A DNA stretch of 32,372 nt from positions 1-32,372 of IMG/VR virus record IMGVR_UViG_2703718827_000001, one strand, 5' to 3'. Shown here piece after piece: positions 2,681-32,372 of this stretch (position 1 is the first letter of the stretch; each line of letters opens with the position of its first letter). The position numbers and the translations under genes were made by a program. This stretch comes from a virus (lineage: Duplodnaviria; Heunggongvirae; Uroviricota; Caudoviricetes). The notes beneath the pieces were generated by a model. That model did no database searches, was not told where the DNA came from, and saw only the letters and a list, made by a program, of their open reading frames with translations.

Positions 2681-5092
2681 TTATGTGATTCGTTGACTGG
2701 TGTTGAAGTTGGTAGCGAGAGCGTTGGACAATTTGCCCTTACCGCTGGCGACATCTCTGACGGCCATGGCGTAGCCCTGCTGCGCACCTCGCTTAACCGC
2801 GGCCTCAAGCATGGCTTGTTGCTGTGCAGAGTAATCACCGTTTAGATGGATAACCGGGCTGAAATTGAACGCCCCGCCACCACCGCCGATATCCCGGTTA
2901 CTGATGACGCGACCGTTATCGCCGGGGATCATGTACTGGCTACCATTGCTGGCTTTGAAAATCTCAGGCTTGCCGCCCTCGCCCACACGGTACATGGAGC
3001 TGGCAGATACCGGGCCGCCGTTTTCGCGCCCGCCGCCATATGAGATGCTCGCAACGTTCGACAGCAATGACGCTCCAGCAGAGGCGATGGCTGCATAGTT
3101 CGCAAGTTTTTGCGCTGGAGTCAGCGCTGTCGGATCAGCCATGGCCTGCATGATTGCGGTATTCAGGCTGAGGGTAGACTGGGCAATCGCAAACGCTTTA
3201 CTGGCTGCGAACATGACCTGGTACGCCGCGTTACTCTTACCAGCAGAGTCTGCAATTATCGACGCCAGGCTATCAAAGCCCTGGGACGCAGAGCCCAGAA
3301 TAGAAAGAACGGATGCTCTTTGCTGATCTGCCTCAGTCTGCGCTATTTGCATCCGTGCGTTTGACGCCTGCAGTTGGATGGCAGTTTTGGCGTCTTCGTA
3401 AAGCTGGGTATTTTGCTTATCCAGTTCCTGATATTTAGCCAGGGCCTCAAGCTTTTGTGTTTCCTGGAGATTGATTTGCGCCAGCGGATCCACTGATGCC
3501 CCAGTGATAGGGTTGACCGAGGTATTTCCGGCGGCTATCTCCTGTTTGGCATACTTCCGCCCCTGCTCAGCCTCTTTGCGCTTCTGAATAGAGATTGCTG
3601 CCTTTTCGTTTGCCTCACCAAGAGCCCTCGCTTCCGCTAGTTGCTGCTGAGTCGCGGCGCTACCAAGAGACTGCTCCGCACGAAGACCCGCCTCTTGAAT
3701 ACGGCGCTTTTCAATCGACTCTGTGGTCAGGTCTGATTGAGCGCGGAGATTAGCCAGTTTCTGAGCAATGGATTCAGCCTGCGATGCGGAAGTTTTGCCC
3801 TCTTTGTTGCTCTCTTTCCGCGCCTCAGTAACCCGATAGGTTTCTGCATATTCATCCTGAAGAGATTTGATGCGTTTCTGATCGGTGATACCAGCGTCTG
3901 TTGCATCATATTGAGCCTGCAGCCTGGCTCTGGCTTCACCTTCAAGCTTGGCTAGCGCCAGGCGGCGCTCTGAGTTTTTTATCAGCTTCGATGTAGCCGC
4001 ATCGTCTCCGGTCGTTTTAATGTTTATTGGCTTTGTATTAGAGGCCTCTTGAGAGGCTTGGGTCACGGCAGAAATATCCCCAACGAGAGCTGCAGCTTTG
4101 TTGCTTAGCCCTGCAAGCGCCTTGCTTTGAGCCTCCCAACCATCCAGTCCCAGCCAAGACCATGTCCTCGCCCTTCGCTCAAACATCTCTGCTGTGCTAT
4201 TGAGATCGGAAATTTGAGCTGCTGCTGAAGCTGTTTTCCCAGTCAGCCTGTCTATGGCTGTGGTGATGGAGTCAATTACAGCCACCATGGTTCTGCTCGC
4301 GCCCGTAGTCTGGTTAATTGAGTCAACCATTGACAGAAACGAATTGGTAAGAGCAGCATTGGCCTGAGATAAGGTGCGGGGCAATTTTGCGAACTCTGCA
4401 TTCACGATGCTGGTTTGCTTCTGAATTGCATTGAGTGCATCTTGAGCAGAAAGCTTCCCATCCAGCATCAACTGACGCAATTCACCAATACCAATGCCAA
4501 GCCCTGCCGCCATCTGCCTTGCCAACTCAGGCATTTGCTCAAGAATAGAGTTAAATTCTTCTGCTCTGACAACACCGGATGAAATAGACTGCCCGAATTG
4601 GCGCAGCGCATTAGCCATTTCCTCGGCAGATGTTCCTCCAATTCGACCAATTTTTTGAAGGGTGTCGGTAAGCTGCAATATTTGGCCATTAGTGGCACCA
4701 GTGCTCCGCAACGCAGTGCTTAACGTTTCCCACAGCTTGGCTGTATCCTGGAGAGATCCTCCTGTTGTTGAGCTTATATTCATCAGACTTTGCATGGTCT
4801 GAGATGCGACAGAAGCACTACCAGTTAGCCTTTCAACTCGAGCGTTAAGTTGGCTCATATTGTCAGCGGCTACAAGAAATGCCTTCCCCCATTCAACGAC
4901 AATTGAAGCAGCGATCGCGCCAGCTACTCTGCTTATGCTGGTCTGAAGCTCATCAAACTTGCTGGCAGCTTTTGATACTCCGCCATTCATCTTCTCAAGC
5001 CGTTCGTTGACTTTTCGCTGGGCCTCAATAAGGTTGGCTACATCCATCTGTACTTGATAGACGATATTTCCTACCTGTTCCTCACTGGCCAT
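2681..5092 (-). CDS. Tail tape measure protein
   Basis: About 800 aa, Ala/Gln/Leu-rich helical composition typical of tape measure proteins, downstream of the major tail protein. ORF extends to 5107, but the first ATG directly abuts a terminator T-tract; the second ATG (MASEEQ..., 5090..5092) has a GGAG Shine-Dalgarno 5 nt upstream. Confidence 0.85.
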   Translation of the reverse strand: MASEEQVGNIVYQVQMDVANLIEAQRKVNERLEKMNGGVSKAASKFDELQTSISRVAGAIAASIVVEWGKAFLVAADNMSQLNARVERLTGSASVASQTMQSLMNISSTTGGSLQDTAKLWETLSTALRSTGATNGQILQLTDTLQKIGRIGGTSAEEMANALRQFGQSISSGVVRAEEFNSILEQMPELARQMAAGLGIGIGELRQLMLDGKLSAQDALNAIQKQTSIVNAEFAKLPRTLSQANAALTNSFLSMVDSINQTTGASRTMVAVIDSITTAIDRLTGKTASAAAQISDLNSTAEMFERRARTWSWLGLDGWEAQSKALAGLSNKAAALVGDISAVTQASQEASNTKPINIKTTGDDAATSKLIKNSERRLALAKLEGEARARLQAQYDATDAGITDQKRIKSLQDEYAETYRVTEARKESNKEGKTSASQAESIAQKLANLRAQSDLTTESIEKRRIQEAGLRAEQSLGSAATQQQLAEARALGEANEKAAISIQKRKEAEQGRKYAKQEIAAGNTSVNPITGASVDPLAQINLQETQKLEALAKYQELDKQNTQLYEDAKTAIQLQASNARMQIAQTEADQQRASVLSILGSASQGFDSLASIIADSAGKSNAAYQVMFAASKAFAIAQSTLSLNTAIMQAMADPTALTPAQKLANYAAIASAGASLLSNVASISYGGGRENGGPVSASSMYRVGEGGKPEIFKASNGSQYMIPGDNGRVISNRDIGGGGGAFNFSPVIHLNGDYSAQQQAMLEAAVKRGAQQGYAMAVRDVASGKGKLSNALATNFNTSQRIT

Positions 5093-24995: not shown

Positions 24996-25223
24996 TTGTG
25001 GTCGCATTTAAGTCCCCTTAAATGCGCAGAAGTCTTACCGTCGGGCGTTCAACTCCGACGACGGTTAAATTATGGCTGGTTGATTATGGAAAATCAACAT
25101 AAGAGAAAGGCCTTCGAAGAGGCCATTGGTGTCTTGATGCTGGTTTATAAATCTCTACCCGCCGGGATGATTCACAAAATACATTTGCAATTAGTACTTC
25201 AGGGAAGGCTGGATTTGATCTAG
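24996..25223 (+). CDS. Small plus-strand ORF (about 45-75 aa), start uncertain
   Basis: ORF with possible internal start MENQHKRKAF...; preceded by a candidate promoter (TTGTGG-N16-TTAAAT) and palindromes; AT-rich; first gene of a plus-strand islet in the nin region. Confidence 0.25.
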   Translation: MWSHLSPLKCAEVLPSGVQLRRRLNYGWLIMENQHKRKAFEEAIGVLMLVYKSLPAGMIHKIHLQLVLQGRLDLI

Positions 25224-30011: not shown

Positions 30012-30550
30012 ATAACCCCCAACATCGAAGTGACCATAGCCATCAGCGGCGCGGTCAGATCCGGGTCGACACGGAACATCTCTACAATCCCCTCACTGAG
30101 TTCCTTGAGCTTCTGGTGACGCGGGGCGTTCATCGCAACGGCCACTTTCGCCTCGCTCGTTTCTTTCTCAAGTCGAGCTAAGCGGGACATAAAACTGTCC
30201 TCTGGAAGAAGTCGATGGCGATACTCCAGCGGCAAAACGGCCATGATTGCGGGCGTCAGCTGGCGCACGTTCTCGCGGTACTGCTCAGAGTCGAAACGGT
30301 TATCCAGAAAGCGAAAAAGTTTCTGGCGCGCCCTGCTGATGTCTTCCGGAAAGCTGATGGCGGTCCCGCCCTGCTCCCGGTATTCGTTGATGATCAGCGC
30401 CGAAACGACGTCCTGATTGTCCAGCGCCGACGACCATGCCCTGACCGCATCGCGGATCTTTTCGTGGTCTGGCGCCGCCTTAGGTTGAGCGCGGTTTATC
30501 ATCGCTCCCGGGTGTATTCCGGTATTGTGTTGATACGCAAGTGAATGCAT
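30008..30550 (-). CDS. YdaT-like / CII-type regulator
   Basis: Start at the internal Met (MHSLAYQ...); segment EYREQGG...LTPAIMAVLPLEYRHRL resembles Rac YdaT (EYLRQGG...LIPAILAILPRELRHRL); located directly downstream of the cro-like gene. Confidence 0.55.
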   Translation of the reverse strand: MHSLAYQHNTGIHPGAMINRAQPKAAPDHEKIRDAVRAWSSALDNQDVVSALIINEYREQGGTAISFPEDISRARQKLFRFLDNRFDSEQYRENVRQLTPAIMAVLPLEYRHRLLPEDSFMSRLARLEKETSEAKVAVAMNAPRHQKLKELSEGIVEMFRVDPDLTAPLMAMVTSMLGVM

Positions 30551-30578
30551 TGCTTTCCCTTCGTGGTTAGGGCCGCCG

Positions 30579-30806
30579 TTAAGCGGCTTTTGGTTTACTG
30601 ATTTCAAGGATCTGGTTCTCGGTAAACTGACCACCAGATGCAGCTGCGATTTTGGACGCATAACCTGTTTCGCCGGTGTAATCGGTACGCGGCAGGCAAC
30701 CGCTGTTAATCCACTTGTAGATAGCGCGGGGAGTGCGCCCGCAAGCCTTCGCCACCACCGGTACACGGATTTGCTTGATGATGTCGCCAAGGTTCTTAGG
30801 TTGCAT
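30579..30806 (-). CDS. cro: Cro-like repressor (YdaS-type HTH)
   Basis: 75 aa; HTH (VAKACGRTPRAIYKWINSG); GAGGG Shine-Dalgarno; divergent from the cI-like gene across an operator-containing spacer. Confidence 0.7.
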   Translation of the reverse strand: MQPKNLGDIIKQIRVPVVAKACGRTPRAIYKWINSGCLPRTDYTGETGYASKIAAASGGQFTENQILEISKPKAA

Positions 30807-30895
30807 TTGTTAACCCTCAAATTGAACTGTAAGTACATATTATGTCGGAACTGATAGTTCACGCAAGTGATATTATGATTGAACCTATGGTTCAA
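30807..30895. promoter_or_regulatory. Divergent immunity control region: PR-like promoter and three operator-type palindromes
   Basis: Palindromes GAACTGTAAGTAC (about 30824..30836), GAACTGATAGTTC (about 30848..30860, perfect) and TTGAACCTATGGTTCAA (about 30879..30895). Minus-strand promoter TTGCGT-N16-CATAAT with the perfect palindrome in its spacer. Confidence 0.6.
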
Positions 30896-31608: not shown

Positions 31609-32196
31609 ATGGAAGCAAATAAGGTTACAGAGCTGAGTGATGGCAGCGTCTTGTACGAGCTTGGTGATCACCTCATTACCTGCAAATTAAGCCACGATAA
31701 ACGTTGGCAGCTAGGTGCTTTCAAACGTGATGAAAGTAATATCAGAGATGACACTCTGGCGGTTTTGAAGAATGAAAAATTCATGTTTATGGTTAAGCTC
31801 GGCGGGCAGCTTTCTCCTAAGCCTCAATGCATAGCTGTTAACGGGCGATTTTTATTTTCTGTCCATACCGGCAAAGACAACAACATGGCTGCAGCCATAG
31901 TCATGGATAACACCGGGAAAGAGTTATTCAAGATAGAAACTTCCACTCACCTCATCAGTTCGGCCATATCTGAATTTGGCTGCTACATCGCCCTATCGTT
32001 TGCCGGTAGCAAAAATAAAGATGATTTTTACGCGCACCGGCTTGAGGTCATAAACATTGATACCGCAGAGGTGTTGATGTCCGTTATCAAAACAGACTTC
32101 CTTCGATACGCTGAACTTTCAGTTGTTGAGCCAGACGGCGGACTTTTCGCAACTTTCAATGGTCGCACAAGACTAGTAGATGTGACGAACCTCTAA
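31609..32196 (+). CDS. Hypothetical protein co-transcribed with cI (rex-position cargo gene)
   Basis: 195 aa ORF starting 12 nt after the repressor stop on the same strand; no recognisable motif; AT-rich; lies between operator-bearing promoters. Confidence 0.6.
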   Translation: MEANKVTELSDGSVLYELGDHLITCKLSHDKRWQLGAFKRDESNIRDDTLAVLKNEKFMFMVKLGGQLSPKPQCIAVNGRFLFSVHTGKDNNMAAAIVMDNTGKELFKIETSTHLISSAISEFGCYIALSFAGSKNKDDFYAHRLEVINIDTAEVLMSVIKTDFLRYAELSVVEPDGGLFATFNGRTRLVDVTNL

Positions 32197-32325
32197 AATA
32201 TCCAATCCGCACCCTCCTCCAGGCATTCCCCACAAAAAATTCTAAAAATTTTTTCTCTTTAAAGTTCATATACATACTTGCATATGAACTTTCCATTCAC
32301 TTTAAATGTACTTTTGGTACTTTAC

Positions 32326-32353
32326 TTGAATGAACTATTGGTACATTATCAAC
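32326..32353 (+). promoter_or_regulatory. Candidate PL/OL-like promoter-operator
   Basis: TTGAAT-N16-TATCAA with operator-like GAACTATTGGTAC in the spacer, mirroring the PR-like promoter; nearby GTACTTTTGGTAC repeat. Confidence 0.35.
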
Positions 32354-32372
32354 CCATCGAAACGAAACATCG

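Follow-up and report, generated by a model that had tools for sequence, protein, structure and literature searches.

An Escherichia coli prophage carries three palindromes between its divergent repressor (cI) and cro genes, which raises the question of what kind of immunity switch they serve. The sequence belongs to the virus record IMGVR_UViG_2703718827_000001 (Caudoviricetes), of which positions 1 to 32,372 were analysed and are referred to as the window. Positions 30823-30894 very probably represent the right operator (OR) of a lambdoid immunity switch of the HK022 type, as judged by comparison with annotated phages and related prophages. The observations behind this assignment are the sequence features themselves, their homology to annotated HK022 sites, and their conservation and covariation among relatives. 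The switch of the window is a diverged copy of the long-studied region of coliphage HK022, not a new immunity type. Descriptions of the operator consensus of that phage reportedly go back to 1989, and a footprinting study to 1993.

Operator sites in the window

An inspection of the sequence alone (the original prediction) had listed three sites of the GAAC-N5-GTTC type, here named OR1 to OR3 (Table 1), and the positions given for all three proved exact when verified by script. Their centres, 30830, 30854 and 30887, are spaced by 24 and 33 bp, the former distance being the one proposed for the first two sites. The site introduced there as a perfect palindrome has arms of 5 bp (GAACT/AGTTC) and three central bases; the arms of OR3 extend to 7 bp.

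A scan for the exact motif G[AT]AC-N5-GT[AT]C, with 100 dinucleotide shuffles of the window as background, yields five copies in the 32,372 bp compared to 0.91 +/- 0.85 expected, a number reached in 0/100 shuffles. All five copies fall into two clusters with 24-bp spacing in each, namely the three OR sites and two more copies centred at 32314 and 32338, which had gone unnoticed in the first inspection and form the left operator (OL). Regular expression and position weight matrix (PWM) searches found neither further operators nor a site resembling the HK022 far-right operator (O_FR) elsewhere in the window. A LexA box (CTGT-N8-ACAG) was not noticed on reading the OR sequence, for which no dedicated search was made.

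Palindromes in an AT-rich intergenic region might also arise by chance, or be the sites of another protein, and exert no control over a promoter. Such an origin would be compatible with the looser motif GAAC-N5-GTTC, which at one mismatch or fewer is not enriched in the window (16 copies vs 11.7 expected) and was not used, and with a generic sigma-70 scan, whose promoter-like sites are no more numerous than in shuffles. Because the one-mismatch motif is not enriched, the operator signal consists of the exact half-sites, their clustering and their spacing. The exact copies, however, occur only at the places of lambdoid operators; position, spacing and half-sites are kept among relatives with varying centres, and the motif is gone exactly where the recognition helix of the repressor changes (see below). 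These observations make a chance origin exceedingly improbable.

Correspondence to the HK022 immunity region

The RefSeq record of HK022 (NC_002166) contains no operator features, and the records X16093, O276 and HK75 were used instead. All three possess the oR sites TGAACTTATGGTTCA, GGAACTGATAGTACA and TGAACTTATGGTTCA, spaced by 24 and 33 bp from centre to centre; in X16093 the centres are at 437, 461 and 494, the last of which is the cI start. OR1, OR2 and OR3 of the window align position for position with oR1 (TGAACTTATGGTTCA), oR2 (GGAACTGATAGTACA) and oR3 (TGAACTTATGGTTCA) of HK022, which bears out the proposal that the palindromes are operators. The same records annotate the right promoter pR as TTGACT-N16-CATAAT, whose spacer holds the middle oR, and the cI ATG falls exactly on the centre of the third. 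Two oL sites, TGTACTATTGGTACT and TGAACTTTAAGTACA, are placed at a distance of 24 bp, and the left promoter pL reads TTTACA-N17-CATCAT. Each annotated feature of the HK022 switch has a counterpart in the window at the same relative position, and it is this one-to-one mapping onto X16093, O276 and HK75 that identifies the locus as the OR of a diverged HK022-type immunity region. Shared between both are the OR spacing of 24/33 bp, the location of OR2 in a 16-bp pR spacer, the cI ATG at the OR3 centre and the CATAAT hexamer. All five window sites fit the 15-bp HK022 consensus TG[A/T]AC-N5-GT[A/T]CA, each of them aligned to an annotated HK022 site. The testable consensus that the original prediction had offered for its immunity type is real, but it equals the consensus of HK022 and does not define a new type.

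The two regions also differ in several respects. HK022 possesses O_FR downstream of cro, approximately 323 bp upstream of the cI start, where the window has no regular expression or PWM match. O_FR is present only in the HK022-like clade and is an accessory element, which does not define the switch. The cII of the window is of the YdaT family and not HK022 CII, and therefore no HK022 pE is expected. Finally, an open reading frame (ORF) of 195 aa is present between cI and OL in the window.

Conservation and covariation among relatives

The comparison set comprises 80 viral contigs, hits to phage and E. coli records, and 61 genome loci. Geometry was assessed in 86 loci, the OR sequence in 38 distinct relatives, the OL sequence in 63 distinct regions and the start codons in 31 distinct relatives. 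Counted from the A of the cI ATG, 85/86 loci have the OR triple at -57/-33/0. Likewise, the OL pair is found with its 24-bp spacing in 85/86 loci, 775-3115 bp downstream depending on the cargo after cI. This geometry and the half-sites are kept across repressor identities of 57-100%, with varying centres.

The 38 distinct OR sequences show little or no variation in the half-sites TGAAC(T) and GT[A/T]CA. OR1 (PWM score 22.1) has invariant half-sites and four variable central bases. OR2, which is located inside the spacer of the right promoter (PR), abuts its -35 and overlaps a weak -35 of the putative maintenance promoter (PRM), is invariant at 13/15 positions including most of its centre; only 30855 and 30859 vary (T/A). 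This near-invariance fits a second constraint on OR2, from its overlap with the PR spacer and the putative PRM -35. The half-sites of OR3 are invariant except for a single T at 30884 (37/38), and the two bases before the cI ATG in its centre vary freely.

The right half of OR3 contains the second cI codon (Val, 30890-30892), for which 38/38 distinct viral and phage relatives use GTT. The synonymous GTA would still fit GT[A/T]C and was seen at a single genome locus, in Enterobacter sp. BIGb0383 (L095). OR3 seems to favour the GAAC/GTTC half-site form, and OL2 is GTAC/GTAC in nearly all loci; these forms may represent a code for the affinity of Cro versus repressor.

Every genome locus examined whose repressor carries the recognition helix TPKAVSKWFN possesses sites of the motif at the cI-cro junction, among them loci of Enterobacter, Kluyvera, Klebsiella, Brenneria, Shigella and Pantoea stewartii. 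Most of these genome loci have the full OR triple at -57/-33/0, and two are rearranged, with Enterobacterales CwR94 lacking OR2 and Pantoea sp. 1.19 having a degenerate OR3. Loci of the genome set with other recognition helices do not possess sites of the motif at this junction. The Pantoea eucrina type, with an insertion in the helix-turn-helix (HTH), has TTAAC-N5-GTTAA centred on the cI ATG instead. Four Pantoea loci (L102, L104, L106 and L107), with cI homologues of 46-48% identity and an insertion in the HTH (…ISTPGVWKWFN), have lost the TGAAC sites and carry TTAAC-N5-GTTAA at about -10 to +8. The layout with OR3 on the start codon persists in these loci while the half-site changes. Operator motif and recognition helix covary across these sequences, which points to a reader and its site.

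At one locus, 3501-3740 of Shigella flexneri SFBU0723 (L129), the repressor match is confined to the N-terminal 80 residues. Its OR triple is intact and an OL-like pair occurs 503 and 527 bp from the start; the repressor is possibly a truncated, non-inducible remnant.

The right promoter

PR reads TTGCGT (30866-30861)-N16-CATAAT (30844-30839) on the minus strand and has the second palindrome within its 16-bp spacer. This promoter, already described in the original prediction, is the homologue of the annotated HK022 pR, from which it differs in the -35 (TTGCGT here, TTGACT in HK022). In the 38 distinct relatives its -10 is conserved in 32-38 sequences per base, and its -35 keeps an invariant TTGnnT. 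The generic sigma-70 scan missed PR, the -35 TTGCGT being under the scan threshold, and is uninformative as evidence alone.

Start of the repressor and putative maintenance promoter

The repressor frame contains ATG codons at 30842, inside the PR -10, and at 30875 and 30887. An overlap of the -10 with the first repressor ATG had been noted before and is confirmed by the position of ATG 30842 within CATAAT. It had been further suggested that the repressor starts at a downstream ATG or is leaderless, and of the two downstream candidates 30887 is the better supported by its invariance, its position at the OR3 centre and the start of homology. ATG 30887 is invariant in the 38 distinct relatives, and homology to HK022 cI begins with it as residue 1. 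HK022 cI is annotated from the homologous ATG (X16093), and HK022 CI is functional when expressed from there (PMC8053113 supplement). The most likely start of the repressor is 30887, in preference to 30842 and 30875, an assignment based on conservation and homology because 30842-30887 lacks in-frame stops in all relatives.

For strain 1218KP and the relatives ET846 and H6, RefSeq/PGAP has the start at 30875, which precedes the HK022-homologous ATG by four codons. The upstream RefSeq start was seen in at least three E. coli genomes (L001 4476, L003 2709 and L004 2899). A repressor beginning at this ATG (240 aa), or at 30842 (251 aa), would leave the architecture the same, with OR3 inside the coding sequence, the maintenance promoter further upstream and a leadered message. 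The open frame from 30842 in all relatives, the presence of ATG 30842 in 29/31 distinct sequences and a weak AAGTGA 5 nt before 30875 would agree with such a start. However, ATG 30842 is conserved because it is part of the PR -10, and ATG 30875 is missing from 11/31 distinct relatives, including the whole HK022 clade. Only ATG 30887 is invariant and has the homology, annotation and functional expression of HK022 cI at the equivalent codon, and an invariant TAnnnT at 30874-30879 would set any transcript start downstream of 30875. An upstream start is unlikely on these grounds, and the RefSeq start at 30875 is probably a systematic misannotation for the clade.

For a repressor starting at 30887, the putative PRM is CTGATA-N17-TATGAT, a weak plus-strand promoter and the sole result of the generic sigma-70 scan in the region. 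T30874, A30875 and T30879 (TAnnnT) are invariant in the 38 distinct relatives, with variable flanking bases. The hexamer is TATGAT in the window and TATAGT in HK022, and ends 7 nt before A30887; in HK022, the label 'PM-10' falls within the same 20 bp before the cI ATG (PMC8053113 supplement). Given the conserved TAnnnT, the maintenance transcript probably starts at the AUG or within a few bases of it. From this we infer a cI message that is leaderless or nearly so, with OR3 covering both the transcription start and the start codon.

Several points weigh against the interpretation of the locus given so far. X16093 calls the HK022 sites 'potential', and the support for binding in HK022 is second-hand (GenBank features and PMC8053113). 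Common descent accounts for part of the signal, given how strongly the OR DNA is conserved. The putative PRM has a weak -35 (CTGATA) contained within OR2, and its position may be wrong by a few bases; were the -10 instead TATTAT (30871-76), the leader would measure 4-5 nt. OR2 is centred at -33 from A30887, about one helical turn closer than OR2 of lambda, which is centred at approximately -42 from the PRM start; lambda-style activation of PRM by OR2-bound repressor is therefore not assured. The frame upstream of 30887 is open to ATG 30842 in all relatives, and read-through transcripts might conceivably give rise to longer repressor isoforms.

The left operator and its promoter

OL1 and OL2 are situated downstream of the repressor gene and, as in HK022, lie 24 bp apart and bracket the -35 of the left promoter (PL). 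OL1, the top PWM match of the window, aligns with HK022 oL TGAACTTTAAGTACA; its centre is variable among relatives and its half-sites are kept. OL2 aligns with HK022 oL TGTACTATTGGTACT and is present in 85/86 loci. PL is TTTACT-N17-CATTAT here vs TTTACA-N17-CATCAT in HK022. An ACTTTAC block, and ACATnAT at the PL -10, are conserved across the 63 distinct OL regions.

Two weak candidates for a third site (OL3) lie 53 and 22 bp away from OL2, centre to centre, both with PWM scores <8. At least 80% of the 63 distinct OL regions keep the half-sites GTTCA and TGAAC of these candidates. The HK75 record places oL3 at the 22-bp position, in disagreement with the OL2-OL3 distance of 53 bp given for HK022 (PMC8053113). 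Upstream of OL2, at 32261-32293, there is a conserved 11-bp inverted repeat, AAAGTTCATAT-N10-ATATGAACTTT, the arms of which are outward-pointing operator half-sites. Each arm could be half of a weak OL3; alternatively, the cI transcript could end in an RNA hairpin formed by the repeat.

Repressor and Cro proteins and the specificity of immunity

Read from ATG 30887, the repressor shares 59% identity across residues 1-233 with the cI of HK022 and of HK75, a phage with the immunity of HK022. Compared by parts with HK022 cI, the identity is 64% in the N-terminal 75 residues (DNA-binding domain), 44% in the linker and 58% in the C-terminal domain. The cI recognition helices, TPKAVSKWFNGE in the window and TPKAISKWFNGE in HK022, are nearly identical. 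Cro is 52% identical to HK75/HK022 Cro over 75 aa, and its HTH recognition helix is TPRAIYKW vs TPKAVYKW in HK022. In the S24 domain, Ala105-Gly106, Ser150 (GDSM) and Lys187 (KRL) are invariant in the repressor alignment.

A switch of HK022-like build may have a different immunity specificity, such that prophage and HK022 do not cross-repress, with discrimination by operator centres, flanking bases or the diverged C-terminal cooperativity domain. The low identity of the repressors (59% overall, with the linker and C-terminal domain even lower), differences in the OR1 and OL1 centres between the two clades and the missing far-right operator downstream of cro in the window clade are consistent with this. 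On the other hand, the predicted base-contacting helix positions are identical in cI and differ only by K to R in Cro. The same GAAC/GTAC half-site mix is present in both clades with no clade-specific base, OR2 differs at 1/15 positions between them, and cross-immunity requires only DNA binding by each repressor's own oligomers. A separate specificity is accordingly a possible but rather doubtful alternative to an HK022-type switch that shares the immunity of HK022.

The helix TPKAVSKWFN combined with TGWAC-N5-GTWCA and a nearly frozen 72-bp OR may even delimit one cross-immune supergroup, a proposal that is made tentatively, with the balance leaning slightly against it. If true, it would unite prophages of Escherichia, Enterobacter, Klebsiella, Citrobacter, Kluyvera, Brenneria and Pantoea, despite a divergence of their repressors to 55-60% identity. 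The host of the present prophage would be immune to HK022, and HK022 lysogens would be immune to the prophage. Operator DNA would then be more constrained than the proteins reading it. Such a supergroup would run counter to the usual picture, in which lambdoid immunity regions diversify into many heteroimmune types.

The value of these results lies mainly in annotation and as a resource. They assign the prophage switch to the HK022 immunity family, fix the operator and promoter coordinates (OR1-3, OL1-2, PR and PL), correct the likely repressor start from RefSeq 30875 to 30887 and predict cross-immunity with HK022. The 86 loci and the genome hits constitute a natural experiment usable for studies of repressor-operator co-evolution, with no new mechanism.

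Proposed operation of the switch

Repressor dimers, consisting of an HTH and a LexA-like self-cleaving domain, would bind the 15-bp operators TG[A/T]AC-N5-GT[A/T]CA. In the lysogen, OR1+OR2 and OL1+OL2 are expected to be filled cooperatively. OR1 and OR2, filled together, would bracket the PR -10 and block transcription of cro, the YdaT-type cII and the replication genes, with PR occluded by OR2 in the spacer and by OR1 over the start. Cooperative filling of OL1 and OL2 would occlude PL, OL1 lying over spacer and -10, and OL2 abutting the -35. According to PMC8053113, which cites Carlson & Little 1993, HK022 CI binds OR and OL cooperatively and loops OL to OR; by analogy, OL-OR looping is likely here. 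Excess repressor would occupy OR3 and lead to negative autoregulation of cI. Cro, by its near-identical recognition helix, would read the same sites and shut cI off through OR3. The prophage would be induced by RecA-stimulated self-cleavage at Ala105-Gly106, with Ser150 and Lys187. For the window switch we infer binding, cooperativity, filling order, transcription starts and the leaderless message from sequence.

Comparison with lambda and CP-933P

The elements of a lambda-type switch are present in the window: PR, a putative PRM, OR1-3, and the S24 cleavage and catalytic residues. Both switches have divergent cI and cro genes with three operators between them, an OR1-OR2 distance of 24 bp, a paired OL and a repressor composed of HTH and S24 domains. 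The lambda cI maintenance message is leaderless, and the same is probable for the message from the maintenance promoter of the window. In contrast, the operators are unrelated in sequence to those of lambda (17 bp, TATCACCGCCAGAGGTA type), and the OR2-OR3 distance is 33 bp in the window but 23 in lambda. OR3 of the window is centred on the cI AUG and the putative transcription start; OR3 of lambda overlaps the -10 and spacer of PRM.

A YdaT-type cII adjoining cro is shared with CP-933P and Rac-type prophages, but repressor, Cro and operators of the window are of the HK022 type and not RacR/YdaS. YdaT of CP-933P was footprinted on 5'-TTGATT-N6-AATCAA-3' next to cro (PMC9986795); this motif was not found near cro in the window. 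Its sole perfect copy, TTGATTATGGAAAATCAA, is located at 25080-25097 between small ORFs, 5 kb from ydaT, and may be a coincidence because the YdaT recognition helices vary.

Gene context and further features

The window is a prophage of E. coli, 100% identical to strain 1218KP over the segment tested, and its immunity region is present in only 7/5,426 complete E. coli genomes. On the minus strand beside the operators, the ORF list and Pfam give a Cro-like gene, the YdaT-family cII equivalent and replication genes; the plus strand continues with the HTH_3 and Peptidase_S24 repressor gene and the 195-aa ORF. The gene next to cro belongs to the YdaT family (Pfam PF06254, E = 2e-26; PHROG 163, CII-like activator). 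The 195-aa ORF has no match in Pfam, PHROG or PADLOC and lies in the slot held by rexAB in lambda. Given the range of cI-to-OL distances among relatives (775-3115 bp), the slot after cI is a site of variable cargo, which might comprise exclusion or defence genes transcribed together with cI.

Table 1. Features of the immunity region, in window coordinates
Feature	Positions	Strand	Remarks
cro homologue, 75 aa	30579-30806	-	ORF list; PHROG 35, transcriptional repressor
cro Shine-Dalgarno GAGGG	30814-30818	-	7 nt before ATG 30806; read from sequence; position equivalent to the HK022 cro ribosome-binding site of X16093
OR1, TGAACTGTAAGTACA	30823-30837		over PR start region; core GAACTGTAAGTAC 30824-30836, centre 30830
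PR -10, CATAAT	30839-30844	-	position and letters as 'pR -10 region' of X16093 and O276
OR2, GGAACTGATAGTTCA	30847-30861		core GAACTGATAGTTC 30848-30860, centre 30854
PR -35, TTGCGT	30861-30866	-	homologous to annotated HK022 pR -35 TTGACT
Putative PRM/PM -10, TATGAT	30874-30879	+	paired -35 CTGATA 30851-30856; consensus scan
OR3, TGAACCTATGGTTCA	30880-30894		palindrome TTGAACCTATGGTTCAA 30879-30895, centre 30887 = A of cI ATG
cI-type repressor, 236 aa	30887-31597	+	Pfam HTH_3 N-terminal domain, S24 self-cleaving C-terminal domain
195-aa ORF between cI and OL	31609-32196	+	ORF list
Candidate weak OL3 sites, TCTCTTTAAAGTTCA and TGAACTTTCCATTCA	32254-32268; 32285-32299		conserved half-sites
OL2, TGTACTTTTGGTACT	32307-32321		core GTACTTTTGGTAC at 32308, centre 32314; PWM 20.7
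PL -35, TTTACT	32321-32326	+	homologous to annotated HK022 pL -35 TTTACA
OL1, TGAACTATTGGTACA	32331-32345		core GAACTATTGGTAC at 32332, centre 32338; PWM 24.5
PL -10, CATTAT	32344-32349	+	17-bp spacer; homologous to annotated HK022 pL -10 CATCAT

A putL-like sequence occurs downstream of PL in the source genome (L001 6015-6082), approximately 40-110 bp past the window end at 32372. It is closely similar to putL of HK022/HK75 (GAACGGCGCG...AAACCATGCGTCGG...GGCGGG.TCAGGA.GA.CGGCAAT) and about 60 nt further from PL than in HK75, and suggests RNA-mediated (put-type) antitermination. The relatives Omnitron, ET846 and H6 have unrelated sequence at this position. The cro-ydaT gap (30505-30580, minus strand) contains no convincing counterpart of putR, which is not claimed, only short AACGGC...GCAATG fragments. 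A search for put RNA in Rfam gave no match, nor did the HK75 control, as the database lacks a put family.

Elsewhere in the same prophage, outside the window, Rfam matches the Hfq-binding small RNA isrB at L001 8280-8377 (minus strand) with 38.2 bits vs a gathering score of 35. The match is flanked by a frameshifted 'DNA breaking-rejoining protein' gene and a recE-like gene.

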